NCBI GenBank assembly: GCA_001695645.1
Contig: LVZN01000001.1
Coordinates: forward strand, 60,001-92,000
Length of the DNA stretch: 32,000 nt
Reading direction: 5' to 3'
Source: Erysipelotrichaceae bacterium MTC7
GTDB lineage: Bacteria > Bacillota_I > Bacilli_A > Erysipelotrichales > Erysipelotrichaceae
Part shown: positions 6,679-26,106 of the stretch, piece after piece
How positions within the stretch are numbered: position 1 is the first letter of the stretch
How the letters are laid out: each line of letters opens with the position of its first letter
Notes under the pieces: model-generated
What the model saw: only the letters and a program-made list of their open reading frames with translations
Database searches by the model: none
What the model was told of the DNA's origin: nothing
Made by a program: the position numbers and the translations under genes

Positions 6679-6750
6679 AATTTTCTCCTTTTAATTTTAA
6701 TTAATTTATTTAAACAATAAATCGCGCGAATTTTATTGTTGAAATCTGGT

Positions 6751-8371: not shown

Positions 8372-9811
8372 TTATTCTAAATATTCACCATTTGTTTCAA
8401 TCACTTTTTTATACCAATGGAAGCTATCTTTTCGATAACGCTTCATTTCTGAGATTTTTGCTTTTTCATCATCTTCATCACGATCAACATAAATAAACCC
8501 ATAACGCTTTGTTATACCTTCACGTGTTGATACTAAATCAATCGCACTCCATGGACAATATCCAAAAAGCATTGCACCTTCCTCTATTCCTAACTTTATT
8601 TCTTTGATTGTTTCACGCAAGTGTTCAATCCGATATTGATCATGTATTGTTCCATCAGATTCTAAAATATCATCACGACCATAACCATTCTCTGTAACAA
8701 TCAATGGTAAATGATAACGATCAGTTAATCGCCTAGCAGTAACTCTGATACATGATGGATCATAATAATGACCATCAATTTCTGCCTTAGTCATATATTC
8801 ATTATGTATTACCTTACCAACACCTGGTTTTTCCATCAATTTTGCTAAATAACTCATATTACGATTATCTGCATTTTTTAATTCATTCAAATCTAATTTA
8901 TAATAATCTAAATGTTCTGTAGTATCATTCCCATAGCAATTAAAAGCTATAAAATCTGGTTTGCATTCCTTCATCACTTCCATATCTCCCTCATGAATAT
9001 CCAGCTTAACATCATTAAGTTCAAAATATCGATCTACACTCTTAGGATATTCACCAAATACAAGTGGATCTAAATACCAATTATTTCTCAAATCATCCAT
9101 GTTGTAAGCTGCAATTTGATCTTTGGGATTACAGCTTGCTGGATATGAAGTAGTTATATTAGGTGCAGGACCAATTTTTGCATTTGGACTAATTTCATGG
9201 CAAAGTTTTATTGCCTTTGCTTGTGCAACAATTTGTCGATGCCCATCATTATAAATTTCATTCATCGAACGAGTAGATACTCCTCCTCCAATCATATCTA
9301 ATGCCCCAAAGTAAATAAGAGCATTCTGTTCATTGAACGTAAGCCAGTATTTTATATCATCCTTATAATTTTCAAATAAAACACGACAATATTCAACATA
9401 CAAATCAATTAGTTTGCGATTACTCCATCCCCCGTAATTTTCCTGCAATGCTAACGGCAAGTCAAAATGAAAAATGGTCACAATTGGTTCAATTCCATAC
9501 TTCTTACATTCTTTAAATACATTTTTATAAAATCTAATTCCCTCTAAATTTATATCACCTTCACCAGTTGGCATAATTCTTGACCAAGAAATTGACATTC
9601 TATAAGCCTTAAACCCCATCTCTGCCATCATTGCAATATCTTCTTTATAATGATGATAAAAATCACTTGCATAGTGGAAGGAGCAAGTTCCTGGATTTAA
9701 TTTCTTAGTATCCCATATTGATAAACCTCGTCCATCACAATCAAATCCACCTTCAACTTGAGCACTTGATGTAGAGGCCCCCCATAAAAAATTATTTGGA
9801 AAATTTGTCAT
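8372..9811 (-). CDS. 6-phospho-beta-glycosidase, GH1 (paralogue 2)
   Basis: 479 aa. [32 protein letters not shown]. There is no SD close to the ATG; see the hairpin at 9826-9862. Confidence 0.9.
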   Translation of the reverse strand: MTNFPNNFLWGASTSSAQVEGGFDCDGRGLSIWDTKKLNPGTCSFHYASDFYHHYKEDIAMMAEMGFKAYRMSISWSRIMPTGEGDINLEGIRFYKNVFKECKKYGIEPIVTIFHFDLPLALQENYGGWSNRKLIDLYVEYCRVLFENYKDDIKYWLTFNEQNALIYFGALDMIGGGVSTRSMNEIYNDGHRQIVAQAKAIKLCHEISPNAKIGPAPNITTSYPASCNPKDQIAAYNMDDLRNNWYLDPLVFGEYPKSVDRYFELNDVKLDIHEGDMEVMKECKPDFIAFNCYGNDTTEHLDYYKLDLNELKNADNRNMSYLAKLMEKPGVGKVIHNEYMTKAEIDGHYYDPSCIRVTARRLTDRYHLPLIVTENGYGRDDILESDGTIHDQYRIEHLRETIKEIKLGIEEGAMLFGYCPWSAIDLVSTREGITKRYGFIYVDRDEDDEKAKISEMKRYRKDSFHWYKKVIETNGEYLE

Positions 9812-9825
9812 ATTATTTATTATCT

Positions 9826-9862
9826 TTATATTAGAATCGATATAAAATCGATTCTAATATAA
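9826..9862. repeat. perfect 16-bp inverted repeat with a 5-nt loop between two GH1 genes
   Basis: TTATATTAGAATCGAT ataaa ATCGATTCTAATATAA, verified base by base. No U-run follows on either strand. Confidence 0.9.
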
Positions 9863-9890
9863 TCTCCTTTCTACAATTATATTCATATTT

Positions 9891-11357
9891 TTATTCTAAA
9901 TCTTGTCCATTGCTTGCTATTACTTTTTTATACCAATAAAAAGAGTCTTTCTTATAACGATTGTAGGTTCCATTTCCTTTATCATCTACATCAACATAAA
10001 TATAACCGTAGCGTTTAGATGCCTGTCCTGTCGATGCAGCTATTAAATCAATACATCCCCATGAGTTATAAGAAATTAAATCAACTCCGCTTTCTACAGC
10101 CTCCATCATTCCTTTAATATTTTCTCGTAAATAATTTATTCTGTATAAATCATGGATAGAACCATCATTTTCAAGAATATCTTTTGCACCTAACCCATTC
10201 TCTACAATCATTAAAGGTATTTGATATCGATCATAAAGCTCTATAAGTGTAATTTTCAAAACTAAAGGATCAATTGTCCAACCCCATTCACTTTTTTCTA
10301 AATACGGATTATTAATCCCAGTTAATAAATTACCAACTAAATGCTTGGAATCTTTCTCATGAATTGTATAACAACTAGATCCATAGCAAGAAAATGCATA
10401 ATAATCAACTTTTCCTTCTTCTAAGTCTAGAAGATCATTTTCTTCCATTTGGATTTCTATATTATTATCTTTCCAAATTTTCTTGGCATAAGATGGATAG
10501 TAACCACGCACCATTGTATCTCCAAAATAATGAGTGCCATTTTGGCCTTTTTCTATGATTGCTAAATAATCTGCAGGATCAGCTGTTAGCGGATATGTAG
10601 TACCTTGATAAATCATAGACCCTACTTGATAATTTGAATCGGTTTCATGTGCCAATTTCACTACTTTTGCACTTGCAAGCAGAAGATGATGTGATAATTG
10701 GTACGCTTCTTGTAAAGTAATTGCACCAAACACATTTCCTATCATTCCAATTCCATTAATTTCATTAAATGTAATCCAATATTTAACTAAGTCTTTATAT
10801 TCATTAAAACAAACTTTAGAAAATTCAATAAACTCATCAATCATTTTCCGATTAAGCCAGCCCCCATCATATTTATCATCTAAATATGTAGGCATATCAT
10901 ACTTAAACAATGTCACAATTGGTTCAATATCATATTTTTTCAATTCTTCTAACACTGACCGATAGAAATCAATCCCTTTTTGATTTGGACCTTTCTCAAT
11001 ACCAAACGGCATAATTCTTGCCCAAGAAATAGATAAATTTAAAGATTCAAATCCCATTTCTGCAAATAGAGCAATATCTTCTTTATAACGGTGATAAAAA
11101 TCGATTCCATTGCGATTAGGATAATAAATATCACTTTTTTCTAATCGCTTTATTCCTCCTGCAGAAATAATATTCCAGCAAGGGGAAGCATCACTTTTAA
11201 GGTTTCCTTTAGAATCTATATATTCTACTTTTCGAAAAATATCTCCTTCTCCTAAAACTTGTGCATAATCTACTTCAACTGGTGATTTTCCATCTTCATC
11301 CCAAGCCCCTTCACATTGTGCAGCAGAAATAGAACCACCCCATAGTATTTTTTTCAA
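9891..11357 (-). CDS. 6-phospho-beta-glycosidase, GH1 (paralogue 3)
   Basis: 488 aa. ITFNEING, IVENGLG, AASTGQASKRYGYIYVD. TTG start (TTGAAAAAAATACTATGG) 4 nt after the EIIC stop. The N-terminus aligns with paralogue 5, so no alternative start is available. Confidence 0.9.
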   Translation of the reverse strand: MKKILWGGSISAAQCEGAWDEDGKSPVEVDYAQVLGEGDIFRKVEYIDSKGNLKSDASPCWNIISAGGIKRLEKSDIYYPNRNGIDFYHRYKEDIALFAEMGFESLNLSISWARIMPFGIEKGPNQKGIDFYRSVLEELKKYDIEPIVTLFKYDMPTYLDDKYDGGWLNRKMIDEFIEFSKVCFNEYKDLVKYWITFNEINGIGMIGNVFGAITLQEAYQLSHHLLLASAKVVKLAHETDSNYQVGSMIYQGTTYPLTADPADYLAIIEKGQNGTHYFGDTMVRGYYPSYAKKIWKDNNIEIQMEENDLLDLEEGKVDYYAFSCYGSSCYTIHEKDSKHLVGNLLTGINNPYLEKSEWGWTIDPLVLKITLIELYDRYQIPLMIVENGLGAKDILENDGSIHDLYRINYLRENIKGMMEAVESGVDLISYNSWGCIDLIAASTGQASKRYGYIYVDVDDKGNGTYNRYKKDSFYWYKKVIASNGQDLE

Positions 11358-11363
11358 ATAATT

Positions 11364-12662
11364 TTACCTATTACTCTCCTCTTCTAATTTATTCTGTTCT
11401 TCTGCTTCAGCAGCTTGTTCTTTTAAATACAATTGGTTATCATATATCTTAAGGAACGGCCACCAAACTAGAGCAGAAGGAATTATACATAAATATTCAA
11501 ATACTACATTCATTATATTTAATGTTCCAAAATAAGTACCAAACCCCATTGGAAATACACCAAATATCATAATCCATGGTGGAATAATAAAGCCGGTCTG
11601 ATAAGCTATCCAGAACAAAACCATAATAAATAATGAATTTAAAACAAATGGGATACATAAGATAGGGTTAAAAATAATTGGCATCCCAAAGATTACTGGC
11701 TCTGTTATATTAAACCAACCAGGAACTACCCCAACTTTAGCAATCGCACGAACTTGTTTCGATTTTGCTTTTAAACCTAATAAACTTAATGGTAACGGAT
11801 TTCCAGTACCTCCAACAGCTGCCATTGCTCCATATAGAAATACTGGTGCTGCCACTAACGGCAATCCAGCTTCATGTAGTAAGGCATTCGTGTGAATTGC
11901 TTCAAGCATAGAAGCCATAACAATTGGATAAGTTATTGCTCCACCATGAATCCCAAAGCACCATAATACTAAAGTAACAAAACATAAAACAAATATCCCT
12001 GGCAGTGATGTTAATGTACCAAGTGGAACCATCAGCACAGCCATAATGGCAGTAGGTAAATTTAAGGCTCCTGCTGATATAACTGATAAGATTACATTTA
12101 ATCCTTGAAAGATAATTACATTTATTCCAAATGGAATAATTGCTGAAAATGAATTAACTAATGCATCCGGACATACATCAGGCATTGGAATACGAATTTT
12201 TCTATCTGCACAGAATTTTTCAACTCTAATCACCACAAATGAAATAATAAATCCAACAAACATCCCTGTTGATCCTAAAAATGAAACATCAAGTTTCCCA
12301 TCAATCAGTGGTGCACACACTAAAACAAATATAATCCCTGCATCAATTGCATTTGCAAAAGGCATTTTCATCTTTAAATTCTTTGCATAATTATAGGCAA
12401 TAAATAATGTTACCCATATTCCTAATAAATTCATTGTAAAATTGTAAGGAGCATAAATATATCCGTAAACAGCACTCTCTGCAGTGAATAGACCTGCCAT
12501 TGTACCAATAGCACAAATAATTTGACATATTGCTCCAATCATAATAATTGACATCGTTGACATCATCCCAGCAGTTAATGATGCAATGAACTTGTTTGAC
12601 CCTAATTTTTGACTCATTTCTTGTAATTTAACAAGAAATGGATTATTTACTAATTTCTCCAT
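11364..12662 (-). CDS. PTS lactose/cellobiose-family EIIC component
   Basis: 432 aa polytopic protein. The N-terminus MEKLVNNPFLVKLQEMSQKLGSNKFIASLTAGMM is typical of CelB/LicC-type EIIC. Confidence 0.9.
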   Translation of the reverse strand: MEKLVNNPFLVKLQEMSQKLGSNKFIASLTAGMMSTMSIIMIGAICQIICAIGTMAGLFTAESAVYGYIYAPYNFTMNLLGIWVTLFIAYNYAKNLKMKMPFANAIDAGIIFVLVCAPLIDGKLDVSFLGSTGMFVGFIISFVVIRVEKFCADRKIRIPMPDVCPDALVNSFSAIIPFGINVIIFQGLNVILSVISAGALNLPTAIMAVLMVPLGTLTSLPGIFVLCFVTLVLWCFGIHGGAITYPIVMASMLEAIHTNALLHEAGLPLVAAPVFLYGAMAAVGGTGNPLPLSLLGLKAKSKQVRAIAKVGVVPGWFNITEPVIFGMPIIFNPILCIPFVLNSLFIMVLFWIAYQTGFIIPPWIMIFGVFPMGFGTYFGTLNIMNVVFEYLCIIPSALVWWPFLKIYDNQLYLKEQAAEAEEQNKLEEESNR

Positions 12663-12679
12663 ATATAATTCCTTTCTTT

Positions 12680-12979
12680 TTATTTTTTTTCGTAAAGTTT
12701 GTTTACTAATTCCATAATATTAGGACAATTAGCAACAGCATAATCAAATGATTCAATTACAGCACATGGTATATTGGTAGTTTCTTTAATTTCTTCAAGA
12801 CGATACCCTATTTGTGGACCAACCAATATGATGTCATAATTACTATAAACTTCACTGTAATCACTTATACCGACAGCATCTATTTCTAGTTCTATTGATT
12901 GTTCTTCCCAATATTTTTTCATTTTTTTCATCAATAAACTTGTAGATATTCCACCAGCACATACTAATAAAATTTTCAT
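12680..12979 (-). CDS. PTS lactose/cellobiose-family EIIB component
   Basis: MKILLVCAGGISTSLL phospho-Cys motif. The track ORF starts at a GTG (12991) that overlaps the GGAGG, so I prefer the ATG at 12979. Confidence 0.85.
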   Translation of the reverse strand: MKILLVCAGGISTSLLMKKMKKYWEEQSIELEIDAVGISDYSEVYSNYDIILVGPQIGYRLEEIKETTNIPCAVIESFDYAVANCPNIMELVNKLYEKK

Positions 12980-12999
12980 ATCTGCTTTCACCTCCTTTT

Positions 13000-13308
13000 C
13001 TATTTTCGTTTATAAAGTAATATAATTTCTTTTATCAATTCAATAGCAATCATACTTGTCATCAAATGATCTTGTGCATGAATTAATAAAACATCAATAG
13101 CAGTTTTTTCTCCATTTGCTTCTTTAAATAAAAGTTCTGTTTGAGATTTATGTGCTAAATTAATTGCATCATCTGATTTTTTCAGCAATTCCTCAGCTTC
13201 ATCTATATTCCCTACCTTAGCTTTTTGAAGTGCATTGAATGCAAGAGTATGTGCATCACCAGCGTTTGCAATAATTCCAAATGAAACCATTTCAGTATTT
13301 GACTCCAT
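13000..13308 (-). CDS. PTS lactose/cellobiose-family EIIA component
   Basis: 102 aa helical protein. IIANAGDAHTLAF...LLIHAQDHLMTS (phospho-His region) is typical of EIIA-Lac/Cel. Confidence 0.9.
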   Translation of the reverse strand: MESNTEMVSFGIIANAGDAHTLAFNALQKAKVGNIDEAEELLKKSDDAINLAHKSQTELLFKEANGEKTAIDVLLIHAQDHLMTSMIAIELIKEIILLYKRK

Positions 13309-13335: not shown

Positions 13336-13364
13336 ATTTTAGTTTATAAGAATTTTTCAGTCAA
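13336..13364 (-). promoter_or_regulatory. sigma-A type promoter of the cellobiose-family PTS operon
   Basis: Minus strand TTGACT (13364-13359), 17 nt spacer, TAAAAT (13341-13336), about 28 nt upstream of the ATG. Confidence 0.6.
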
Positions 13365-13393
13365 AAAACAGAAAACTCAATTTTGATAAGTAA

Positions 13394-13417
13394 TCATACA
13401 CTATTCATCAGTGTTTT
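13394..13417. promoter_or_regulatory. candidate operator/UAS: inverted repeat ACACT-N7-AGTGT (shared motif, copy 1)
   Basis: Plus strand TCATACACTattcatcAGTGTTTT, 33 nt upstream of the -35 box. An inverted AGTGTAT half-site lies at 13463-13469. Near-identical sites occur at 15746-15769 and 24227-24250. Confidence 0.45.
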
Positions 13418-13581
13418 TTTATATTTTTCACACAATATCAATGAACTAGAAAAATCTCATCTAGTGTATATATTTTTCCTAATAAAATTGATTTGTGTTT
13501 ACCCATCACTTATGTTATTTCCTTTTGTATGTTTTACTATAATTATTGTACTTTCATCAATTTTATAAGATTAAATGAAAT

Positions 13582-13615
13582 AAAAAAACCTTAGAGATTT
13601 TTTCACACTCTAAGG
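13582..13615 (-). terminator. rho-independent terminator after the UPF0303-like gene
   Basis: Minus strand AACCTTAGAG-loop-CTCTAAGGTT followed by TTTTTTTA. Confidence 0.8.
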
Positions 13616-13633
13616 TTATATTTGTATTTTTTA

Positions 13634-14161
13634 TCAAAATAGTCTTCCTGTAAATTCTATAACTTTCTTATCTAAATATGTACTAAGTGAATTTACAATT
13701 AACTCATGATCCAGCCCATCATGTAATCCAGATATTGCCACCGTTGCTTCTAGGTTTCCTTCTACATAAATCGGAAAAGCTCCACCTACTGGCATACATT
13801 CTTTATTCCCAAATAATTGCTCCATTGAGCTCCCATTCACGATGCCATTCACTAGTTTCCAGAAGCTAGAATGTCCTGTTTCCAAAACACAATTTCTTTT
13901 CAAATTTGCATAAGTTATATTCTTTTTTGTTTTTGTATCCATTACATATTGAAAGATTGGCAACTGATCCTTCTCTCTGGTAATAAGAATAACAATATCT
14001 TCTTCATACCCATCTAAGAGGTCTATTATGATATCACCTAACATATATGCATCTTTACTATTAAAACGAGAAAATTGTAACTGTTTTTCTATACTCTCAA
14101 GTTCTATCAACTGGTTATTAGTATAAGAAAAGTCTAAATGTTCTAACATAGATGTTTTCAT
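13634..14161 (-). CDS. UPF0303 / GlcG-like (heme-degrading-domain family) protein
   Basis: PVGGAFPIYVEGNLEATVAISGLHDGLDHELI resembles the UPF0303/DUF336 C-terminal core. The track ORF starts at a GTG (14173). I prefer the ATG at 14161 (MKTSML) with GGTGA 8 nt upstream; the ATG at 14170 is also possible. Confidence 0.6.
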   Translation of the reverse strand: MKTSMLEHLDFSYTNNQLIELESIEKQLQFSRFNSKDAYMLGDIIIDLLDGYEEDIVILITREKDQLPIFQYVMDTKTKKNITYANLKRNCVLETGHSSFWKLVNGIVNGSSMEQLFGNKECMPVGGAFPIYVEGNLEATVAISGLHDGLDHELIVNSLSTYLDKKVIEFTGRLF

Positions 14162-14162
14162 A

Positions 14163-15146
14163 TTACTCATCACCAGGAAAAATAATCCCTGCTTCTAGTC
14201 TTGCTTTAGTCATAATTTCACTTACTGCAATACTTTGTTCCAATTGTTGATAGCAATATTGATAATCTTTATCATTTATAGCATTAATAAACGCAGTAAA
14301 CTCAGGTACTAACCTTTCATATGCACTCTTATCATCAAATTGTTCTTCTGTGCCATCATTTAATTTAATTGTAACTTCTCCAACTAAATTTGGAGGAAAT
14401 GAACTTCTAATAACCCCATTTGTACCTTGAATCAATCCACCAACCACTCCACCACAGTCTTTTGCAGCAAAACAGTGAGCATTAAATTTAGGGTAATTTA
14501 GAACTAATAATCCATTTGTATCAATATCTCTTTCAATTGTTGGATAATACTTCACATTATCTGGTTTTCCAAATAATCCCATTACATAATGTAAATTATA
14601 TAAATTCAAATCCATTAAAGCACCACCAGCTTTTTTAGGATCAAAAGCTGGTAATATCTCACCTGCTTTAAAAGAATCATATCTCCTTGATTGTTGTGTA
14701 TGATTGCTTTCTACATTTTTAACTTCTCCTATTCTTGGCAACCACTCTTTAATCTTTAAAAATGTTCCTAGATAAACCGTTGTGATAGCTTCAAACAAGA
14801 ATAGTTTCTTTTCTTGCGCTAACTTCTTTAGTTCCATGGCTTCTCTAACATTGCTAGTCATTGGTTTTTCAATAATAACGTTTAGTCCTTTTTCTAGTGA
14901 TTTTTTACAGAACTCATAGTGTATAAAATTGGGCACCGCTACATAAACTGTATCAATTCCAGAAGCACACATTTCATCAAAAGAAACAGTTGTAAACTTT
15001 ACTCCATTGTCATCTCCAAGTTTTTTTGCATTATTAAACTCTTCTATAGTACTCATGATTCCTAATACTTCTATTCCATCCATCTTTACCATTTTAGGCA
15101 AAAAATCTTGAACAATCATTCCTGAACCAATAATTCCTAGTTTCAT
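14163..15146 (-). CDS. Gfo/Idh/MocA-family NAD(P)-dependent oxidoreductase
   Basis: 327 aa. N-terminal Rossmann motif MKLGIIGSGMI and the EKP motif (VIIEKPM) are characteristic of the family. Confidence 0.85.
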   Translation of the reverse strand: MKLGIIGSGMIVQDFLPKMVKMDGIEVLGIMSTIEEFNNAKKLGDDNGVKFTTVSFDEMCASGIDTVYVAVPNFIHYEFCKKSLEKGLNVIIEKPMTSNVREAMELKKLAQEKKLFLFEAITTVYLGTFLKIKEWLPRIGEVKNVESNHTQQSRRYDSFKAGEILPAFDPKKAGGALMDLNLYNLHYVMGLFGKPDNVKYYPTIERDIDTNGLLVLNYPKFNAHCFAAKDCGGVVGGLIQGTNGVIRSSFPPNLVGEVTIKLNDGTEEQFDDKSAYERLVPEFTAFINAINDKDYQYCYQQLEQSIAVSEIMTKARLEAGIIFPGDE

Positions 15147-15157
15147 CTTTATACCCC

Positions 15158-15634
15158 CTACATAATACTTCCTACAACTTGGTAGGAATCTTTTGTATAC
15201 TGCATAATCTCAAACTTATTTCCATCAGGATCATGTACCCACATCTGATAGGTTCCAGAAGGCCCTTTGGATATTTCAGTATCTATCTCCACACCACGTT
15301 TCATCAATTCTTCTCTCGTTTGATAAATATCATCTACAAGTAATGCATAGTGAGAATACCCTATATTTTGGTTCCATTTGTCATGTGGCCCCTGCCCTTC
15401 AAAACTTGGGAACAACTCGATGAATTGTCCTGGTGCAATTTCTATATAGACAATAACCACTTTTTCAGGATCCGTTTTTGCAAGTTGCTGATATAATTCA
15501 CTTCCTTCATTTGCATATGCTTTTGCTTTCGTAACAATTTTTGGTTTTAATCCCAGTTTATTTTCATAAAAATCTCTCATTACATCCATTTGATCAGTAA
15601 AAAATGTAACATGCATAATTGAATTAAATTTCAT
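15158..15634 (-). CDS. VOC (glyoxalase/bleomycin-resistance/dioxygenase) family protein
   Basis: 158 aa. The HVTFFTDQMDVMRDFYENKLGL opening and the HYALLV...DPDGNKFEI end are typical of the paired beta-alpha-beta-beta-beta VOC modules. Confidence 0.75.
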   Translation of the reverse strand: MKFNSIMHVTFFTDQMDVMRDFYENKLGLKPKIVTKAKAYANEGSELYQQLAKTDPEKVVIVYIEIAPGQFIELFPSFEGQGPHDKWNQNIGYSHYALLVDDIYQTREELMKRGVEIDTEISKGPSGTYQMWVHDPDGNKFEIMQYTKDSYQVVGSIM

Positions 15635-15647
15635 TTTTCCTCCTTTG

Positions 15648-15665
15648 CAATCGATAAATCGATTG
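15648..15665. repeat. 18-bp palindrome directly upstream of the VOC gene RBS
   Basis: CAATCGAT aa ATCGATTG with perfect 8-bp arms. It shares the AATCGAT/ATCGATT core with the 9826-9862 repeat. Confidence 0.8.
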
Positions 15666-15745
15666 TGCTAAATTATTATTCATTTTAATTTTAATGCATA
15701 ATGACAGTTCAAAAAAGTAGTCCTTATTTTTCTCATTAAAATTAT

Positions 15746-15769
15746 TTATACACTAAATTTAAGTGTCTC
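15746..15769. promoter_or_regulatory. candidate operator/UAS: inverted repeat ACACT-N7-AGTGT (shared motif, copy 2)
   Basis: Plus strand TTATACACTaaatttaAGTGTCTC, 37 nt upstream of a TTGAAC -35-like box. An inverted half-site AGTGTATGATTA lies at 15825-15836. Confidence 0.45.
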
Positions 15770-16001
15770 TGAATATTTGTAATAAAATCATTAAAATATA
15801 TAAATAACCAAAATTATTAACAATAGTGTATGATTATTTATGAAAGTAAACTTGTAGTGTCTTGGCATATATCTATATTCATTCTTTTGTATAATATAAA
15901 AAAAATCATAAAATCGCACTTTGAAATAGTATCCATCTTTGATTTCCATGGAGATGGAAAAATCTCTCTCTATTATAGTTACTATTTATTTTCAAATGTC
16001 T

Positions 16002-16028
16002 AAAAAAACCTATCTTAAATAAGATAAG
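16002..16028 (-). terminator. rho-independent terminator after the LevR-like gene
   Basis: Minus strand CTTATCTTatttAAGATAGG (one G-U pair) followed by TTTTTTTA. Confidence 0.65.
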
Positions 16029-16041
16029 TTTTGATAGTATA

Positions 16042-18648
16042 TCATATTTTTTTAACCATTGTAATCAAGTTAGCTATTTCATAATCATCAATAATAATTT
16101 TAAATACTTTCTCAATTTTCCTAATAATTTTTGATATTATGCGATATTCATCACTATAAGACTTAATTATTTCATCACTTCTTGGATTCTTAGTTGTGCT
16201 ATTTCCTGATAACACTCTTTCAATTAACCCCGCTATATGAACAAATAAACCCAGTGCTTGGTCACCATCTAAATTATAAATAAGAGACAATTCCTCCACT
16301 ACCGATGGAAGCGTAGTTTTTAATTTTGTCATAGAAGTTTCTGTAAACTGTTCAGATAAATTCTTATAAACTAAACTATAATCTATATTCATTTCATTTA
16401 CTGGTTCAAACATTAATATACGGTCAACATTATTGCTAGGTACTTCAAAAATACTACTGATGGGGATGTAGGGGATACCAAATAACTTCGGATCATAAGT
16501 TCCCACAAATGCGTGAATATTATATGCTTTACGGATGTCTAAAATCTCTTTTATTAAAATATCACGATTAGATATTGCCAATGCAATTGTTTTCATGCCT
16601 AGTCGCGAATGGCTGTCAATGTAATTTTTTAGTTGTAAGGCGCCACCTTCTCCCGTATGACACAGTGTAACAATTGCCGTATTATGTAAATTTTGTTGTC
16701 TTTTTCTATTTTCATACTCCAGATTAACTGAATGATATACAGAATCTATATCACCTTCCATAGAACATTTTCTCGCTATATCTATCCCTAACAGTGTTAC
16801 TGGAACATTCATATAACGAATTTTAACATCAATCTCCTCGGATATTGCATCTACCATCGTTTTGATTGACCCCATATCATAAACTATGATAACTCCAGCA
16901 CCTTGATCTATCTTTAGTATAAGCGTTTTAATTTCTTCCACAGCTTGCTTAGATTGACTATCTAAAGTTAAATCATAACTATATGCATTGCTACACTGTG
17001 TTAATGAGTTTGTAACATCACTTAATGATTTCGCAGTACTATTTCCATGCATAATATATAGTAATACTGGTTTAATATCTTCATCATCTTTTTCAGATCC
17101 AATTAAAAATAATGCAATAATAACTACTTCTGCGATATCCAAATCTAAATTTAGTTCTTTTTTTAACATAGATACAAACTGCGATGCTGCAGTATATTCA
17201 TCTGGATAATTTTGAATTACTTCAACTATCTGATCATTGTTAATTCTTTGGCTTCCAATACTTTGTGACAATAATGAATTAGTATGTAAGCATAATCCAT
17301 AAAATATATTTGATTTTAATTTGACATTTTTCTCTTTTTCAAAATCATCTACTAATATTGTTACTAGTGAAATTATTCTTCTGTCCACAATTTTTGATAA
17401 ATGTTCTAAGTTTTTATTATCGTTCTCTATACTATAACTATATAAATCGAAAAATTTCTTGATATGCTTATTCATGACCTCTTCAATACTTTCAACTTTA
17501 ATTCCACGATTTGTCATTTCATCATATTGTGTTTTAATATCGCCATACATTGTCCCTAAGTGGTCAAGCGAGTATTCTGGATTTTTTCCATATATAAAAT
17601 ACTCTCGTACACCTAATAATTCTTCTAAAGATTCTCTATATTTTTTGGCTAATAATAGCCCTCTTTTTACATTAGCAGTAAAATCATTAATGCAAACGAA
17701 AATCTCTTTATCTGACTCTGTTACTACCCTTATATATGCATTGGCGCAAGAAGCCATTATTTCATCTCTTAATTCTTTTAGATTGAAAGCAAATTTCGTC
17801 AACAACAAGCCTTTAATTGACTCTGAAGTTACCTTAACATCTCGATTAGAATTTTGTGCTTCTGTTGCATAAAATCTATTAATTAATTCTAGCCGTTCCG
17901 AAAAGGGGCGATCACTTAATGGTGGCAGTTCGATAATGGCAGGTACTTTTCTTTCCACACCAGAACCTTTAGAAGTTACAGACAGTATTAAGTTCACATC
18001 ACTATAATCAACCAATTTATCATCATATTGTAAATAGTTGGTTTCCAAAAAGGAAAAAATTAATGCCTGCTGTTTTACATTTAACATATCAAATCCTTCT
18101 ATAAATAGTATTCCCCCTCGTGCCTTTTCAAAATAAGAATTATGATTACTTCCTAATCCAAATAGTTCATTATTTAAGGTAGATATATCTTTACTGTAGT
18201 GATGACAGTTGATTTCTTCAAATGGAGAATCTATCTGTAATATTTTACTTTCTACAGCAAATTGATAAACCAAAGACGCAAATGTTGATATACCGCTTCC
18301 ATGTTCTGCAGAGATTAAAATATTCAAGCTCCTTTGTGGATATAAAACAGCAGCTTTTGCTAATTGAATAGCATTTTTCAAACTTCCTTCATTACCTACT
18401 ATTTTAGAAAAACATGTACCTGTATTAATTTCTTCCTGTTTTTCGCAAATTCTATACTTAACAGGTCTAGTATTAGATTTTTCTAACTTCCCTTCCTTAA
18501 TTAACTCATTAAGAATTGTACTTACATTAGATTTCCTTATACCAAGAGCTTCGGCTATATCAGTCGTAATAACGCCATTGATAAACTTATTATCCGTATA
18601 CATTTTTTGAGTAATATAATCAAAAACTATTTCTTTTAATGGCTTCAT
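16042..18648 (-). CDS. LevR/ManR-type PRD-containing transcriptional regulator with a degenerate sigma54-EBP AAA+ domain
   Basis: 868 aa. N-terminal wHTH (DIAEALGIRKSNVSTILNELIKEGKL). The central region aligns with EBP AAA+ modules, but Walker A reads AEHGSGIS, no GAFTGA is present and Walker B reads LFIEGF. It is followed by a PRD, an EIIA-Man-like segment (LLYIMHGNSTAKS...VIIVYDMGS), an EIIB-Gat-like segment (AIVTLCHTGEGGALQLK) and a second PRD (LGLFVHIAGLIER). Confidence 0.8.
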   Translation of the reverse strand: MKPLKEIVFDYITQKMYTDNKFINGVITTDIAEALGIRKSNVSTILNELIKEGKLEKSNTRPVKYRICEKQEEINTGTCFSKIVGNEGSLKNAIQLAKAAVLYPQRSLNILISAEHGSGISTFASLVYQFAVESKILQIDSPFEEINCHHYSKDISTLNNELFGLGSNHNSYFEKARGGILFIEGFDMLNVKQQALIFSFLETNYLQYDDKLVDYSDVNLILSVTSKGSGVERKVPAIIELPPLSDRPFSERLELINRFYATEAQNSNRDVKVTSESIKGLLLTKFAFNLKELRDEIMASCANAYIRVVTESDKEIFVCINDFTANVKRGLLLAKKYRESLEELLGVREYFIYGKNPEYSLDHLGTMYGDIKTQYDEMTNRGIKVESIEEVMNKHIKKFFDLYSYSIENDNKNLEHLSKIVDRRIISLVTILVDDFEKEKNVKLKSNIFYGLCLHTNSLLSQSIGSQRINNDQIVEVIQNYPDEYTAASQFVSMLKKELNLDLDIAEVVIIALFLIGSEKDDEDIKPVLLYIMHGNSTAKSLSDVTNSLTQCSNAYSYDLTLDSQSKQAVEEIKTLILKIDQGAGVIIVYDMGSIKTMVDAISEEIDVKIRYMNVPVTLLGIDIARKCSMEGDIDSVYHSVNLEYENRKRQQNLHNTAIVTLCHTGEGGALQLKNYIDSHSRLGMKTIALAISNRDILIKEILDIRKAYNIHAFVGTYDPKLFGIPYIPISSIFEVPSNNVDRILMFEPVNEMNIDYSLVYKNLSEQFTETSMTKLKTTLPSVVEELSLIYNLDGDQALGLFVHIAGLIERVLSGNSTTKNPRSDEIIKSYSDEYRIISKIIRKIEKVFKIIIDDYEIANLITMVKKI

Positions 18649-18739
18649 ATAATCATCCTCCAGTTACATACTTTATACATTAATTATACTATATTCACTT
18701 TCGTTATCATATATTATCATCTAATTGATTATAATGGCT

Positions 18740-18747: not shown

Positions 18748-20102
18748 GGTAGTGTAAAATATCTTGTGTAAACTCCCGGAATTACCAATCCAGGAGAAAT
18801 AGTTAATATAGAAAAAGGGCGCCGTTCCTAGTAGAATTAATTGTGACTAAACAATATTCGAAAGGACGACTACCTATGAACAATTTTAGCACAGAAATCT
18901 ACAAGGCACTATCACAAGGTTTAAATATTGACCAAATCATTTGCAATGAACTGCAAGACCAGATCAATTACTTACTTAAAACGGAACTAACAGCTTTCCT
19001 TGACTATGATAAGCATGATGTACGTGGTTACAACTCTGGTAACTCTCGTAACGGATTTTACACTCGTGACCTTGAAACTAAATATGGAACTATCAAGGTG
19101 GAGGTACCTAGAAATCGTAATGGTGAGTTTAACCAACAAACCATTCAACCATATGCACGCAGAACTGATGATTTAGAAACTGCAATTCTTCATTTGTATT
19201 CTAAAGGTGTAACCACCGCGGAAATCGCTGATCTGATTGAGAAAATGTATGGTCATGCTTATTCGCCGGCAACAATTTCAAACATAACGATGGCGGTTGA
19301 AGAACATGTACAAGCCTTTCACTCAAGAAAACTGAACGAACGATATACCGTTGTTTATGGAGACGCCACAATGATTAATGTCAGACGCGATAGTGTTTCC
19401 AAAGAAGCGCTACATATATTAATTGGGATTACTCCTGAAGGTACTAAAGAGGTACTAGATTACCGACTATACCCTCAAGAATCAAGCGAAAACTATAAAG
19501 AAATGCTTGAAGACATTAAGCAACGTGGTACGCTAGAAATTCTTCTTTTCGTAACTGATGGTTTATCTGGACTAGCGAATGCTTGTTTAGATGTTTACCC
19601 AAAAGCAAAACATCAAGCTTGCTGGGTGCATATTCAACGAAGTGTTTCTAGAAACGTTTGTGCCAAAGACAAGAAAGAAGTTCTTGATGATTTAAAACCG
19701 GTATATAGAGCGAAAGATGAAGTTGAAGCACAAAATCATCTTGAAACGTTTAAAGATAAATACAAGAGTCGGTATCCAAAGGTGATTAAATCACTAACGG
19801 ATAATCAATCATTATTCAGTTTTTATGAATTCCCAGAAGCAATCAGAAGTAGTCTTTATACGACAAATCTCATTGAGGGGATGAATAAACAATTGAAGCG
19901 TAATACAAAACGTAAAGAACAATTTCCAAACGAAGACTCTCTTGATCGGTTTGTATGTGACTACATGATGGATTACAACAGACGGTTTTCCACACGAATC
20001 CATAAAGGGTTCGAAGTGGTACAAGCAGAGATTAATGAAATGTTTGATAAATGATACAATTAAATTCTACTGTGACGTTTACACAAAATTATTGACACTA
20101 CC
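18748..20102 (+). mobile_element. intact IS256-family insertion sequence (1355 bp)
   Basis: Left terminus GGTAGTGTAAAATATCTTGTGTAAAC (18748-18773). The reverse complement of the right terminus (20077-20102) is GGTAGTGTCAATAATTTTGTGTAAAC, which matches at 22 of 26 positions. One long transposase ORF and an 8-bp direct duplication, as expected for IS256. Confidence 0.95.
18876..20054 (+). CDS. IS256-family (Mutator-like) DDE transposase
   Basis: VVYGDATMINVRRD, LLFVTDGLSGL...KHQACWVHIQRSV and TTNLIEGMNKQLKRNTK match the D, D and E regions of IS256-type transposases. The track ORF begins at a GTG (18843). I prefer the in-frame ATG at 18876 (MNNFSTE). Confidence 0.9.
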   Translation: MNNFSTEIYKALSQGLNIDQIICNELQDQINYLLKTELTAFLDYDKHDVRGYNSGNSRNGFYTRDLETKYGTIKVEVPRNRNGEFNQQTIQPYARRTDDLETAILHLYSKGVTTAEIADLIEKMYGHAYSPATISNITMAVEEHVQAFHSRKLNERYTVVYGDATMINVRRDSVSKEALHILIGITPEGTKEVLDYRLYPQESSENYKEMLEDIKQRGTLEILLFVTDGLSGLANACLDVYPKAKHQACWVHIQRSVSRNVCAKDKKEVLDDLKPVYRAKDEVEAQNHLETFKDKYKSRYPKVIKSLTDNQSLFSFYEFPEAIRSSLYTTNLIEGMNKQLKRNTKRKEQFPNEDSLDRFVCDYMMDYNRRFSTRIHKGFEVVQAEINEMFDK

Positions 20103-20169: not shown

Positions 20170-21063
20170 CTATCTATAATATTTATCAATATGAACAAGT
20201 AAAGCACCCAAAAGATTAGAATCATTAGCATATTTACAAGGACTTATTTCTGGACAAACAACATGAAACATCTCCATTTTTTTAAATATTTTTTTTACTT
20301 CTTCATTGATTGTATTAATTAGTATAGGTTGTTGACTAACTCCACCACCAATAATTATCTTTTCTACATCAAATGCACATTGGAGATTATAAATAGCATT
20401 TGCCATATCCTTACAAAAGATGTTAAGTATTTTTATTTTTTCACTATCCTCATCAATATTTTCAAAAAATATCTTTCCTGTTACTGAGCTAGAATCTATG
20501 TTCTTTAACTTAGCATATTTATTTGTCAGTGCTTGATAACTATTGTGAGCAAACCAATACCGTGACCAGTCCTTATTCTTTGGATCTATCACAATGCTTG
20601 AAAATTCTCCTGAATTACAATGACTACCTTTATATATTTTCCCATTAATCAATATGCTTCCACCAATTGCAGTTCCAATAATAATCGATATTGCATTTTG
20701 TACACCTTCAAGATTTCCAAACCTATGTTCTCCAAGCAATGCACATTCGGCATCATTTGCAATTGTTACAGGGCAGTGAAACAATTCTTCAAATTCTTTT
20801 TGTAAAAATTCCTCTTTTATAAATTGATAGCTACCTCCATGATGTACATATCCAATTTCAGTATTTACTCGTCCAGCTAAACTAATTGCAACTCCACTTA
20901 TCTGTTGCTTGTATTGATTATATAAATTTAAAATAGTTTCAAAGAAGTTCTTTCTGGAATCTATTGGTGAACAAATCGCTTTTTTTTCTAGAAAATCAAA
21001 TTTTTCATTCATTAATGCATATTTAAGATTTGTTCCACCCATATCTAATACTAATATTATCAT
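20170..21063 (-). CDS. ROK-family sugar kinase (no HTH domain; candidate beta-glucoside kinase)
   Basis: 297 aa. N-terminal ATP-binding motif LVLDMGGTNLKYAL, and GTAIGGSILINGKIYKGSHCNSGEF. AGGAGG RBS. It is the last gene after two GH1 genes. Confidence 0.8.
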   Translation of the reverse strand: MIILVLDMGGTNLKYALMNEKFDFLEKKAICSPIDSRKNFFETILNLYNQYKQQISGVAISLAGRVNTEIGYVHHGGSYQFIKEEFLQKEFEELFHCPVTIANDAECALLGEHRFGNLEGVQNAISIIIGTAIGGSILINGKIYKGSHCNSGEFSSIVIDPKNKDWSRYWFAHNSYQALTNKYAKLKNIDSSSVTGKIFFENIDEDSEKIKILNIFCKDMANAIYNLQCAFDVEKIIIGGGVSQQPILINTINEEVKKIFKKMEMFHVVCPEISPCKYANDSNLLGALLVHIDKYYR

Positions 21064-21154
21064 AATATCCTCCTATTTTTCTCTCGTCTACTACATTATA
21101 TATTAAATATATTAATAGAAAATGAGCGAGATATGGTTTCTCGCCTTTTCTATA

Positions 21155-22633
<1,479 letters not shown>

Positions 22634-22646
22634 TTATTTTGAATTA

Positions 22647-24107
22647 TTAATCTAAATTTTTACCATTTGATTCAATTACTTTTTTATACCAATAAAAACT
22701 ATCCTTACGATATCGTTCGTAAGTTCCATTCCCATTGTCATCTATATCAACATAAATATATCCATATCGTTTTGAAATTTGTCCAGTTGATGCAGCAATT
22801 AAATCAATACATCCCCATGAATTATAGCCAATTAAATCGACCCCCTCACCACATGCTTCTATTACTTTCTGGATATGTGTTCTTAGATAATTAATACGAT
22901 AATCGTCATGAACAGTTCCATCATCATTTAATGTATCTCTTGCTCCTAAGCCATTCTCTACAATGAGTAAAGGTATTTGATAGCGATCATATATTTCATG
23001 TAGCGCATACTTTAACCCATCTGGATCCATTGTCCAACCCCATTCGCTCTTTTCTAAATATGGATTCTCTATCCCTGAGCTCATGTTCCCAGTTACTGAT
23101 AATTCACTTTTTTGAGCAGTTAGTGCACTTGAAGAATAATAAGAGAAAGCATAAAAATCTACTTTTCCTTCCCTTAATACCTTTTCGTCATCTAGGCTTA
23201 TTGCTAACTCAACATTATTTTCTTTCCAAATTCTTGAACTATATGTCGGATAGTTTCCTCGGACCATAACATCTCCACAATACCAGAAAATATCCTGCAT
23301 CTTCTTTTGCACAGCAAGTATATCTTTTGGGTTTGGTGTTAAAGGGTAAGTAATCATGCTACAAATCATACAACCAATTTTATATTCTGGATTAATTTGA
23401 TGAGCCATTTTCACTGCTTTTGCACTCGCCAATAATTGATGATGAACTCTTACAAATGCTGATGAAATATTATTTTCGATTCCTAATATTACTCCTTGGA
23501 GTATAATATCCACGTTAATTTCATTAAATGTAATCCAATACTTTACTAAGTCTTTGTATTCCTCAAAACATACTTTTGCAAATGCTAAAAATTCATCTAT
23601 TAATTTTTTATTTTTCCAACCGCCTAACTGTTCTTCAAAATAAACAGGCATATCATACTTAAACAATGTACAAATAGGTTCAATATTATATTTTTTTAAT
23701 TCCAATAATACAGAACGATAGAACTCTACTCCTTCCCAATTAATCCCTTTTTCTATTCCACATGGATAAATTCGAGCCCACGATATTGATAAATTTAATG
23801 ATTTAAATCCCATTTCCGCAAATAATAAAATATCTTCCTTATAATTATTATAGAAATCAATTCCATTACGATTTGAATAATATTCACCATCTACTTCTAT
23901 TCGCTTTGCATATTCTGGCATACCTAAACCAAAATTCCCAGCTATCCCATTTACACCTGTTTCTGTCACATAAGAAATTGTTCTCATTGAATCATTTGAT
24001 GCAACTGTTGCATAATCAATTTCCACAGGAGACTTTCCATCAACATTCCATGCTCCTTCACATTGAGCTGCACTAATTGAACCACCCCACAAAAAATTAG
24101 GTTTCAT
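22647..24107 (-). CDS. 6-phospho-beta-glycosidase, GH1 (paralogue 5)
   Basis: 486 aa. ITFNEINV, IVENGLG, AASTGQISKRYGYIYVD. By eye it is most similar to paralogue 3. Confidence 0.9.
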   Translation of the reverse strand: MKPNFLWGGSISAAQCEGAWNVDGKSPVEIDYATVASNDSMRTISYVTETGVNGIAGNFGLGMPEYAKRIEVDGEYYSNRNGIDFYNNYKEDILLFAEMGFKSLNLSISWARIYPCGIEKGINWEGVEFYRSVLLELKKYNIEPICTLFKYDMPVYFEEQLGGWKNKKLIDEFLAFAKVCFEEYKDLVKYWITFNEINVDIILQGVILGIENNISSAFVRVHHQLLASAKAVKMAHQINPEYKIGCMICSMITYPLTPNPKDILAVQKKMQDIFWYCGDVMVRGNYPTYSSRIWKENNVELAISLDDEKVLREGKVDFYAFSYYSSSALTAQKSELSVTGNMSSGIENPYLEKSEWGWTMDPDGLKYALHEIYDRYQIPLLIVENGLGARDTLNDDGTVHDDYRINYLRTHIQKVIEACGEGVDLIGYNSWGCIDLIAASTGQISKRYGYIYVDIDDNGNGTYERYRKDSFYWYKKVIESNGKNLD

Positions 24108-24226
24108 TTTTCCTCGCTTTCCGCATACGATAAAATGTACGCTACAATAAAATTATGATTTCATTATGATTTTAATATATATATGATTTTCAAGAAAGTC
24201 GCTTTCACCTTTTTTAATGTAGAAAT

Positions 24227-24250
24227 TCATACACTAAAGTATAGAGTTTT
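24227..24250. promoter_or_regulatory. candidate operator/UAS: inverted repeat ACACT-N7-AGAGT (shared motif, copy 3)
   Basis: Plus strand TCATACACTaaagtatAGAGTTTT, 37 nt upstream of a TTGAAA -35-like box. An inverted half-site AGTGTAT lies at 24307-24313, within the palindrome CCATATACTAGTGTATGG. Confidence 0.45.
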
Positions 24251-24394
24251 ATATCCACTATATAGTCCTTATCATAAACCTCAAAATTAATATCAATCCA
24301 TATACTAGTGTATGGAATTTTATATCAATTATGTATTTGTGTTCTAATAATCCAAATAGTTACTTCTTTTTGTATGTTCAAATTAATTTTTAGT

Positions 24395-24706
24395 AAAACT
24401 TCAGAAATTCCAAAATCATTAGTGATTAGTGTAAAAAATAAATAATGGGTGATGTCACTGAACTCAAGTACGGAAAGAAGAATAAAAAAAACTCTATTTA
24501 AGTGCATTTCTTGATTTGTATGATAGAAATCTCGTTGGCTACAAAATAAGTTAGCACAATGATAATCCCTTAGTACTTAATTCCTTTAATAAGGCAGTGG
24601 CTGTAAACAAAATGATCATCCTCTAGTACATACAAATGGTGATTATCAATATACTAGTACAGACTTTATAAAGCTTCTAGGATGACACATAGTATGTTTG
24701 TGAATA
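24395..24706 (+). pseudogene. IS3-family (IS150-like) orfB integrase-core remnant, heavily decayed
   Basis: Stitching frames gives W-V-(shift)-DVTELKYGKKNKK-(shift)-LYLSAFLDLYDRNLVGYKIS*HNDNPLVLNSFNKAVAVN-(shift)-NDHPLVHTNGDYQYTSTDFIKLLG-(shift)-MTHSMF. This follows the IS3 DDE-core pattern (TDVTEF...LYLS..D...R.IVGY, H.D.G.QYTS). The left boundary is approximate. Confidence 0.6.
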
Positions 24707-24707
24707 C

Positions 24708-24799
24708 GTCGCTCGTTTTGCGCCAGTTGCGTCGCGATAGTTTGAGCCACTTAAATCGCGATTAATTGCGCCACTCTCATCGCGATAAACTATGCCAGT
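24708..24799. repeat. four imperfect ~24-bp tandem direct repeats (IS21-type terminal transposase-binding repeats)
   Basis: TCGCTCGTTTTGCGCCAG / TCGCGATAGTTTGAGCCAC / TCGCGATTAATTGCGCCAC / TCGCGATAAACTATGCCAG, starting at 24708, 24731, 24755 and 24779. The stretch is locally GC-rich relative to its surroundings. Confidence 0.7.
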
Positions 24800-24810
24800 T
24801 ATTGTATTTA

Positions 24811-24849
24811 AAAACCAGTTACCACCTTATGATGATAACTGGTTTTTTT
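24811..24849. terminator. bidirectional hairpin terminator just after the istB stop
   Basis: AACCAGTTA...TAACTGGTT, a 9-bp stem flanked by an A-run and a T-run. Confidence 0.55.
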
Positions 24850-25966: not shown

Positions 25967-26106
25967 TTTCAGTAATCTCCTTTCTATTTATACTTGAAGT
26001 TTAAAATAATCGGAGAGCAAAATATAGTCTTAAAATTGTGAATTTTATATTATATGATTTAATTTAGAGAAGAATAAACATCGACTAAAATTTAACAACT
26101 TATTAT

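Follow-up and report, generated by a model that had tools for sequence, protein, structure and literature searches.

This report concerns a short sequence box that recurs upstream of three operons around the gene of a LevR-like regulator in a 32,000 nt stretch of Erysipelotrichaceae bacterium MTC7 DNA (contig LVZN01000001.1, positions 60,001 to 92,000; hereafter the window, in whose coordinates all positions are given). The operon genes relevant to the boxes and the regulator gene all lie on the minus strand. The first target operon (PTS; 8372..13308) encodes the IIA, IIB and IIC proteins of a cellobiose-family phosphotransferase system (PTS), followed by two GH1 proteins (6-phospho-beta-glucosidases), as assigned by Pfam. 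The second (VOC; 13634..15634) encodes a VOC/glyoxalase-fold protein, a GFO/IDH/MocA oxidoreductase and an HbpS/GlcG-like protein, and the third (GH1; 20170..24107) two GH1 proteins and a ROK-family sugar kinase that is weakly BglK-like, both assigned by Pfam and NCBIfam. The regulator gene (16042..18648) encodes a LevR-like protein of 868 aa, the candidate binder of the boxes, and a bgl-type system with a LicT-type antiterminator lies separately, further downstream in the window. Our favoured reading, to which we assign a probability of roughly 0.7, is that the boxes bind this adjacent protein, a PTS-controlled, sigma54-independent derivative of the CelR and LevR regulators, in a phased array at sigmaA promoters. 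The three operons, all related to beta-glucosides, would then form a local regulon, probably together with the regulator's own gene, and the direction of regulation is probably activation.

The conserved unit is a box of 9-10 bp, TATACACTA(A/G), with the consensus TTATACACTAAR and the core TACAC. Read in operon orientation, each of the three promoters carries a TACAAAA element, a box A (RACACWA), a box B (ATACACT) and an inverted box C (AGTGTAT) upstream of the hexamer TAAAAT. For the PTS, VOC and GH1 promoters, respectively, the spacing is 30, 30 and 31 nt from TACAAAA to box A, 30, 30 and 30 nt from box A to box B, 67, 77 and 78 nt from box B to box C, and 61, 61 and 61 nt from the start of the box C AGTGTAT to TAAAAT. 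The PTS promoter has its proximal site at 13394..13414 (9.8 bits, on the weight matrix described below), formed by box C AATAGTGTATGA (13394-13405) and a weak left half ACACT (13410-13414); box B ATATACACTAGA (13460..13471; 15.1 bits, the second best score in the window) starts 67 nt upstream of box C, box A GTAAACACAAAT (13491..13502; 9.3 bits) lies 30-31 nt upstream of box B, and the distal element ATACAAAA (13523..13530) another 30 nt upstream of box A, where relatives carry ATACTTT or ATACGCT. The VOC promoter has the best-scoring proximal site of the window (15746..15766; 16.3 bits), with box C TTTAGTGTATAA at 15746-15757 and the left half ACACT at 15762-15766, followed upstream by box B TCATACACTATT (15822..15833; 9.8 bits), starting 77 nt from box C, by box A GACACTA (15855..15861), 30 nt from box B, and by ATACAAAA at 15885-15892, a further 30 nt up. 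The GH1 promoter repeats this layout with box C TTTAGTGTATGA (24227-24238) and the left half ACTCT (24243-24247) in a proximal site at 24227..24247 (12.1 bits), box B CCATACACTAGT (24304..24315; 9.2 bits), starting 78 nt upstream of box C, box A AACACAA (24337..24343), 30 nt upstream of box B, and ATACAAAA at 24368-24375; an extra weak box, TTTTACACTAAT, is found at 24425-24436. All of these elements are on the minus strand. A degenerate box on the plus strand (18673..18684; 9.8 bits), which reads ATTAATGTATAA in the orientation of the regulator gene, stands 25-36 nt before the regulator ATG and is a possible autoregulatory site.

A preliminary description of this DNA had taken the palindrome ACWCT-N7-AGTGTATRA as the operator. 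Its three sites (13394-13414, 15746-15766 and 24227-24247) are exact matches, all on the minus, or operon, strand, against 0.01 expected in the window, although this figure is post hoc because the pattern came from those same three sites. The upstream inverted AGTGTAT half-sites were likewise found as described, at 13463, 15825 and 24307, and their distances of 49, 59 and 60 were reproduced as 13463-13414, 15825-15766 and 24307-24247; the 12-mer at 15825-15836 is indeed the exact reverse complement of 13391-13402. The term 'tripartite' covers elements that are all present, but understates their number, as each promoter has more than three: TACAAAA, A, B, the weak left half and C. The gaps to the -35-like hexamers TTGACT, TTGAAC and TTGAAA, which had been given as 33, 37 and 37 nt, measure 29, 33 and 33 nt from the 9-mer, although the pattern of x, x+4 and x+4 stands. 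The palindrome did not survive as the conserved unit: a search of 45 orthologous loci for AC[N]CT-N7-AG[N]GT gave no relevant match, it is absent from every relative, and the single box was therefore taken as the unit instead. In the window, ATACACTA occurs 8 times against 1.49 expected, and six of the nine occurrences of AGTGTAT sit in the three intergenic regions.

The three promoters are conserved in patches. An alignment anchored on box B has 32 of 97 columns identical in all three, and one anchored on box C has 40 of 100, compared to 11.5±3.2 at random offsets; the identical columns cluster in the boxes and the -10 hexamer, which argues against a simple recent duplication. The three regions do align over ~200 bp, and the VOC and GH1 leaders are alike in their ribosome-binding site and start, but identity falls to background level between the boxes, the same boxes and positions recur in genomes whose regulators share 30-60 % identity, and shuffled sequences never equal the observed count, so that a functionless duplicate of one promoter segment, or chance in AT-rich DNA, is the least probable explanation that we considered.

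The core promoters differ in quality. Only the PTS promoter (13336..13364) has a proper TTGACT-17-TAAAAT, which scored 10/12 in a promoter scan, and its spacer holds a degenerate box, TTATAAACTAAA (13338-13349; 8.2 bits), that sits at +20 from the start of the -35 hexamer and overlaps the -10. In the VOC promoter region (15688..15712) TAAAAT lies at 15688-15693 and TTGAAC at 15707-15712, and in the GH1 promoter region (24169..24193) TAAAAT lies at 24169-24174 and TTGAAA at 24188-24193; all three are on the minus strand. The assignment of TTGAAC and TTGAAA as -35 elements, made in the preliminary description, is doubtful: both are just 13 nt from the conserved TAAAAT, and they are therefore probably not the functional elements. 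At the VOC promoter, the position 17 nt upstream of TAAAAT is occupied by TTTTTT. The GH1 promoter has an imperfect sequence resembling a catabolite-responsive element (cre), TGAAAGCGACTTTC, at 24194-24207, directly upstream of TTGAAA, whereas the PTS and VOC promoters are without such an element. The core of box C is 35 nt upstream of the -35 start, or of the aligned -35 position, in all three promoters and 58 nt upstream of the -10, which places it at ~-70 if transcription begins 7 nt past the -10; with its centre ~70 nt upstream of this predicted start, box C has a plausible class I-like activator geometry; class I sites of the CRP kind are centred near -61.5, -71.5 or -82.5, on the DNA face that RNA polymerase occupies, and contact the C-terminal domain of its alpha subunit. 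We considered box C as the -10 of a promoter of its own and rejected it: a -35 at a distance of 16-18 nt is missing, and the box keeps a fixed distance from a better promoter.

The boxes were further examined with a 12-nt weight matrix built exclusively from 22 promoter regions of other genomes, applied at a threshold of ≥9 bits and compared to dinucleotide shuffles (n=2000). The three intergenic regions contain 7 matches against 0.44 expected, and none of the 2000 shuffles reaches that number. Three of the sites named in the preliminary description rank among the top four matches of the window, and all six among the top 14. The matrix additionally recovers PTS box A (13491), the degenerate PTS spacer box (13338) and the box upstream of the regulator gene (18673). 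The last of these qualifies an earlier statement that the motif is absent from the remaining upstream regions: the other intergenic regions of the window (bgl-type, gua, glg and others) have no matrix match, as described, but the upstream region of the regulator has its degenerate box. Coding sequence, 27 kb of the window, contains 5 matches; those at 226, 409, 985 and 14915 were rejected as operators and taken as chance because they lie inside coding sequence. The match at 14915-14926 (minus strand) reads TTATACACTATG, scores 13.4 bits and falls within the gene of the GFO oxidoreductase, whose start is ~220 nt away; the GFO gene of a related locus, L046, also contains TACACT, at another codon.

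Comparison with related loci defined the architecture more closely. The regulator protein was used to retrieve 45 loci from a species-level genome collection, at 27-57 % identity, and the closest homologue (61 %) was taken from a metagenome assembly with its contigs. More than 25 of these foreign loci have cel-type IIA-IIB-IIC genes and GH1 genes after the regulator, and most relatives (for example, L003, L007 and L168) have a small DUF3284 gene between the regulator and IIA, divergent from the intergenic region that holds the boxes; the window has no DUF3284 gene. In L046, the locus of the closest relative, an IS110-family transposase gene (5471-6718) is inserted between the PTS IIB and IIC genes. 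The foreign regions upstream of IIA carry conspicuous repeats of the box TATACACTA, and among 60 foreign occurrences of TACACT an A directly precedes 59, a T stands two before 47 and an A follows 48. Relatives combine a TTGACA-17-TAAAAT promoter with TATACACTA where the degenerate PTS spacer box sits in the window.

Positions were counted from the first base of the -35 in the conserved TTGACA-17-TAAAAT promoter. On this scale, 22 of 27 promoters have the core of box C at -34 to -36, among them the three of the window and both of L046, and 2 more have it at -25, one helical turn closer. For box B, 25/27 promoters give positions of -102 to -105 or -111 to -116, the outliers being L016 (-94) and L007-like cases that have no box C: most Clostridium-type promoters have it at -114 to -116, most Erysipelotrichaceae-type promoters at -103 to -105, and those of the window at -102, -112 and -113. 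Box A is 31±1 bp upstream of box B across genomes, and the distance from B to C is either 67-70 or 76-80 bp, two clusters that differ by one helical turn. The idea of helical phasing put forward in the preliminary description thus holds across genomes, with A to B at 30-32 bp and B to C at either 67-70 or 76-80 bp. The left half-site has its counterpart in a weak direct box at -47 to -50, the spacing of which varies (N5 to N8 in several relatives). A further box, TATACACTAAAAT, lies inside the 17-nt promoter spacer in 19/27 promoters, a cre-like sequence, TGWAANCGNTTTGA, covers the -35 in 14 of 24 foreign PTS promoters (for example, L003 at ~13622, L019 and L023) and in none of those of the window, and many relatives have strong (A)GTGTATAAT boxes 5' of the regulator gene, where the box of the window is degenerate. 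The layout is shared by loci with regulators of 30-61 % identity in Clostridium, Erysipelotrichaceae, Trichococcus and Streptococcus pasteurianus; the last, with a 41 %-identical regulator, reads A-31-B ... AGTGTATAAA-29-TTGACA-16-TAAAAT.

The boxes are associated with the regulator and not with the surrounding sequence at large. A scan for direct pairs of boxes 29-33 bp apart, each scoring ≥9 bits, detected one spaced by 31±1 bp in 33 of the 47 regulator loci. It occupies the intergenic region that adjoins either the regulator or the cel-type PTS operon belonging to it, and the remainder of the ~800 kb of fetched loci has no such pair. There is one pair per locus, except in L023, which has two and a duplicated PTS operon, and in L008, where a second pair, at 33 bp, lies in the same promoter region; boxes A and B of the PTS promoter form the only such pair in the window. 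In a reverse search, metagenome contigs were scanned for TATACACTA-N22/23-TATACACTA alone, which gave at least 120 loci. At least 15 of them have a regulator homologue of 29-47 % identity that starts ~250 bp downstream in the same orientation, followed by IIA-IIB-IIC-GH1 wherever the contig extends, and cel PTS genes without the regulator were not seen among the at least 120 matches listed, the bulk of which are tandem repeats or chance occurrences from unrelated environments. In the operons that begin with the regulator, one box abuts the -35 and an inverted box follows the -10, with the motif unchanged, which indicates that the boxes follow the regulator through changes of gene order. In streptococci the boxes lie downstream of the regulator, and the VOC operon has boxes despite having no PTS genes. 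With the foreign-trained matrix and this association in hand, the earlier proposal of a local regulon with one shared motif is well supported, and the adjacent LevR-like protein, already named there as the candidate binder, is by far the best candidate on the strength of the 33 of 47 loci and the reverse search.

The regulator has the domain order winged helix-turn-helix (HTH), degenerate AAA+ domain of the bacterial enhancer-binding protein (bEBP) type, PRD1, EIIA(Man), an EIIB(Gat)-like unit and PRD2. Pfam identified two PRD domains, EIIA-man, HTH matches and a weak Sigma54_activat (E 1.6e-9, 122/168 positions), and the PDB sequence match to NtrC1 is marginal (E 0.0045). The Walker A motif reads EHGSGIST, with no Lys, Walker B reads LFIEGF, and the position of the GAFTGA loop reads ELFGLGSNHNSYFEKARGG; the degeneracy ascribed to this protein in the preliminary description is therefore real and extends to all three motifs. 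A GAFTGA loop is missing from every member of alignments of 14 and of 50 homologues, and none occurs in the family down to 36 % identity. In the closest relatives Walker A reads GCGTTY, and in distant members (36-41 % identity) GxGKS or GxGKT is kept and Walker B has DH or DN instead of DE. The loss of GAFTGA, of the Walker A Lys and of the Walker B acidic pair suggests that the protein can neither contact sigma54 nor hydrolyse ATP. Its AlphaFold2 model (pLDDT 81.7) places the winged helix at residues 1-67, the AAA+ fold at ~80-330 and, within the PRD/EIIA/EIIB/PRD module that it also shows, an alpha/beta unit resembling EIIB at 656-716, and Foldseek aligned the AAA+ fold to PspF, NtrC1, LuxO, FleQ, VpsR and NtrX with TM scores of 0.72-0.76. 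The EIIB(Gat) assignment comes from the model and a conserved LCHTGEGGA, with no Pfam hit.

The phosphorylation module of the regulator is kept. His455 (PRD1), Cys663 (EIIB-like) and His804 (PRD2) are invariant in the 50 homologues, and His534 (EIIA(Man)) is present in at least 90 %; equivalents in CelR, matched by position in the domain order, are His551 and His829 of Clostridium acetobutylicum and His546 and Cys682 of Bacillus thuringiensis (PMC10864463). The recognition-helix and wing residues of the winged helix are also invariant across the 50 homologues. NCBIfam has no equivalog for the protein, its best model being DagR with 204 bits against a cut-off of 1400, and NCBI names members of the family merely 'PRD domain-containing protein'.

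The promoters of the family do not appear to be of the sigma54 type. No -24/-12 element was found on the operon strand of the three window regions with up to 3 mismatches, nor in 29 upstream regions with strict and loose patterns of TGGCAC-N5-TTGCW. A distant cousin shows that the scan can see such elements, which makes the negatives elsewhere informative: L043 (Maledivibacter halophilus, 27 % identity) has GETGVGKS, GAYTGA and FLDEV intact, is the only locus to match G[AS][FY][TS]GA, and has a -24/-12 promoter, TTGGCAGTATTATTGCT, downstream of GTGTA/TACAC palindromes at 12600-13000. L043 may represent the ancestral, sigma54-dependent state, and recognition of the half-site seems to be ancestral to the wider CelR clade. 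To our knowledge, streptococci lack rpoN.

In the mechanism that we favour, the regulator would bind as an oligomer, joined through its pseudo-AAA+ domain, on one face of the DNA. It would occupy two or three direct boxes 30-31 bp, or three helical turns, apart, at ~-140, -170 and -200, together with the inverted box and its weak partner half-site, centred ~70 nt before the predicted start. The core promoters would be of the sigmaA type, that of PTS with TTGACT-17-TAAAAT, those of VOC and GH1 with a good -10 but a poor -35. By the logic established for CelR and LevR, transport of a beta-glucoside would stop EIIB(Cel) from phosphorylating PRD2, HPr would phosphorylate the EIIA(Man) domain when glucose is absent, and the bound regulator, acting like a class I activator, would then recruit or stabilise sigmaA RNA polymerase and so turn on the three operons. 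Activation is favoured by the precedent of the family, by the poor -35 regions of VOC and GH1 and by the distance of ~70 nt between the proximal box and the predicted start.

Several observations weigh against this reading. A perfect spacer box over the -10 in 19/27 promoters, with near-consensus hexamers in relatives, is typical of repression; the cre-like element over the -35 in 14/24 is more in keeping with a repressed than an activator-dependent promoter; and boxes upstream of the regulator gene overlap TATAAT in relatives. The related loci are phylogenetically linked, so that locus counts exceed the number of independent observations, and the box scans of the source genome covered the window. 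The strongest alternative is that the same regulator acts mainly as a repressor, or in a dual manner like TyrR, an oligomer nucleated on the upstream boxes reaching the spacer box and occluding polymerase until the PTS signal arrives. We regard this as unlikely. The perfect TATACACTA in the 17-nt spacer, the TTGACA-17-TAAAAT that surrounds it in relatives and the TATAAT-overlapping boxes all fit it, as does the finding that the AAA+ domain has the sigma54-independent regulators VpsR and NtrX as structural neighbours. In the window, however, the spacer box is degenerate at the PTS promoter and absent from VOC and GH1, whose -35 regions are poor, a combination that indicates dependence on an activator. 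Furthermore, the characterised LevR/CelR-type proteins are all activators (PMC10864463, PMC11976118), and the best-conserved box lies ~70 nt upstream of the predicted start, off the core promoter.

It is improbable that another, unlinked transcription factor binds the boxes and that the LevR-like gene is a co-inherited bystander. The DUF3284 gene and CcpA sites are conserved at these loci as well, and the pairing of regulator and boxes is deduced from sequence. However, the boxes track the regulator through changed gene orders, no second DNA-binding protein is consistently present, and the family shows no variation in the recognition helix. Still less probable is a classical sigma54 upstream activating sequence (UAS) of the CelR/LevR kind whose -24/-12 promoters were overlooked. 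It would suit the LevR/CelR domain order, the Sigma54_activat match that Pfam still detects and the several upstream sites that are typical of CelR (PMC10864463), but GAFTGA, the Walker A Lys and the Walker B DE are all missing, a GG-N10-GC-type element occurs in 0/29 upstream regions, yet was found in L043 with its intact loop, and the matching architecture is present in Streptococcus pasteurianus.

The reading of a sigma54-independent regulator on a phased box array can be compared with characterised systems. That LevR/CelR regulators use multiple upstream sites under PTS control is already known (PMC10864463, PMC11976118, PMC6615313): CelR of B. thuringiensis has three UAS (PMC10864463), and the CelR site of Enterococcus faecalis is ACACACAMAAAARRAWARTGTGTAA, that is, ACACACA...TGTGTAA (PMC11976118). 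CelR of C. acetobutylicum, B. thuringiensis, Listeria monocytogenes and E. faecalis has the same domain order and the same His/Cys phosphorylation sites as the window regulator, and its targets, lactose/cellobiose-family PTS and GH1 genes, are common to both, as are several sites per promoter, the ACAC...GTGT flavour of the half-sites and a promoter-associated cre. Unlike CelR, the window regulator is without GAFTGA, the Walker A Lys and Walker B, its targets have TTGACA-17-TAAAAT rather than -24/-12 promoters, and its family is found in Streptococcus. CelR sites are distal palindromes ~100 bp upstream, whereas here boxes of 9-10 bp form a fixed, phased array that extends into the core promoter. 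LevR of Bacillus subtilis is the prototype of the shared architecture, with activation by HPr through EIIA(Man), inhibition by EIIB through PRD2 and a UAS upstream; it needs sigmaL and ATP hydrolysis and has a mannose-family PTS as its target, none of which applies to the window regulator.

Parallels outside the family are TyrR, VpsR, NtrX, HupR and DhaR, which, like the window regulator, have a bEBP-type AAA+ domain without a functional GAFTGA and which act at sigma70-type promoters (PMC3162934), as the window regulator probably does; sigma70-dependent homologues of enhancer-binding proteins are thus known, in proteobacteria (PMC3162934). TyrR acts through arrays that combine strong with weak boxes, of which some overlie the promoter, and its oligomerisation determines whether the outcome is activation or repression. 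However, the TyrR/VpsR/NtrX group is proteobacterial, with a C-terminal Fis-type HTH and control by a ligand or receiver domain, whereas the window regulator has an N-terminal winged HTH and PRD, EIIA and EIIB domains; TyrR still binds ATP, and the window protein lacks the Walker A Lys. Activators of the MtlR/LicR/ManR type, which include the proteins named CelR in Streptococcus mutans and Streptococcus pneumoniae, are PTS-controlled and act at the sigmaA promoters of sugar PTS operons from operators just upstream of the -35, and the streptococcal CelR of this type has the same role in cellobiose use as the window regulator (PMC3478281). Their architecture, HTH-Mga-PRD-PRD-EIIB(Gat)-EIIA(Mtl) with no AAA+ domain, marks an unrelated family, the window regulator having neither Mga nor EIIA(Mtl), and CelR of S. 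pneumoniae and S. mutans was therefore rejected as a relative. In the searchable literature, which is incomplete, we found no description of a LevR-type subgroup without GAFTGA, of its sigmaA-type targets or of its box architecture.

In L046 and L047, the regulator of 61 % identity likewise has the VOC-GFO-HbpS trio after it (13072-15106 in L046), and the boxes occupy matching positions. The GFO/IDH/MocA oxidoreductase weakly resembles glycoside 3-dehydrogenase and sugar dehydrogenases. That two genomes place this operon under a beta-glucoside regulator is a hint that the processing of glycosides or their aglycones includes an oxidation.

Further features of the window were observed around these genes. 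The VOC and GH1 leaders (15630-15685 and 24103-24166, minus strand) share TAGC..TTTATCG..TGC..GAGGAAAAATGAAA, with a short hairpin directly 5' of the ribosome-binding site, although the predicted fold of these hairpins is weak (z -1.6 and -1.2). An Rfam scan of the whole window gave zero matches, and an explanation of the leaders by a riboswitch or a ribonucleic antiterminator (RAT)-type element therefore does not apply. Terminators consisting of a hairpin and a T-run were read by eye, and not reported by a terminator scan, after the HbpS-like gene (13581-13617, minus strand) and after the regulator gene (~16000-16031, minus strand); if real, they would insulate the PTS and VOC promoters from upstream transcription. 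An intact IS256/Mutator-family transposase gene (18843-20054, plus strand) lies between the upstream region of the regulator and the ROK gene, and its insertion may have truncated the original upstream region of the regulator. A second copy, split into two open reading frames (ORFs), is found near the start of the window (1370-2172, plus strand). Upstream of the GH1 operon, ~1.6 kb (24500-26157) contains no convincing gene and no Rfam match, its sole ORF being an orphan of 111 aa (25631-25966) without Pfam hits.

In summary, LevR/CelR proteins are the textbook sigma54-dependent, PTS-controlled activators of Firmicutes, and their homologues are routinely annotated as sigma54 activators. The locus described here and its relatives indicate a large LevR/CelR subgroup, streptococcal members included, that is unable to use sigma54, which corrects a likely source of mis-annotation. 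We tentatively extend this to a wider proposal, which we hold to be possible but less than probable: a widespread LevR/CelR clade, present in Clostridiaceae, Erysipelotrichales, Carnobacteriaceae, streptococci, enterococci and lactobacilli, may have been rewired from sigma54 to sigmaA, keeping its TACAC/GTGTA recognition and its PTS module, with the AAA+ ring as a dead scaffold on a ~200-bp array of boxes, the spacer box included, from which it would repress and activate one and the same promoter in the manner of TyrR, depending on its PTS phosphorylation state. With this subgroup, the apparent conversion of an AAA+ activator into a pseudo-enzyme scaffold could be studied in a tractable Gram-positive system. 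The motif and its architecture can be used to predict beta-glucoside regulons in gut Erysipelotrichaceae and clostridia, and they tie a previously uncharacterised VOC-GFO-HbpS operon to beta-glucoside metabolism.

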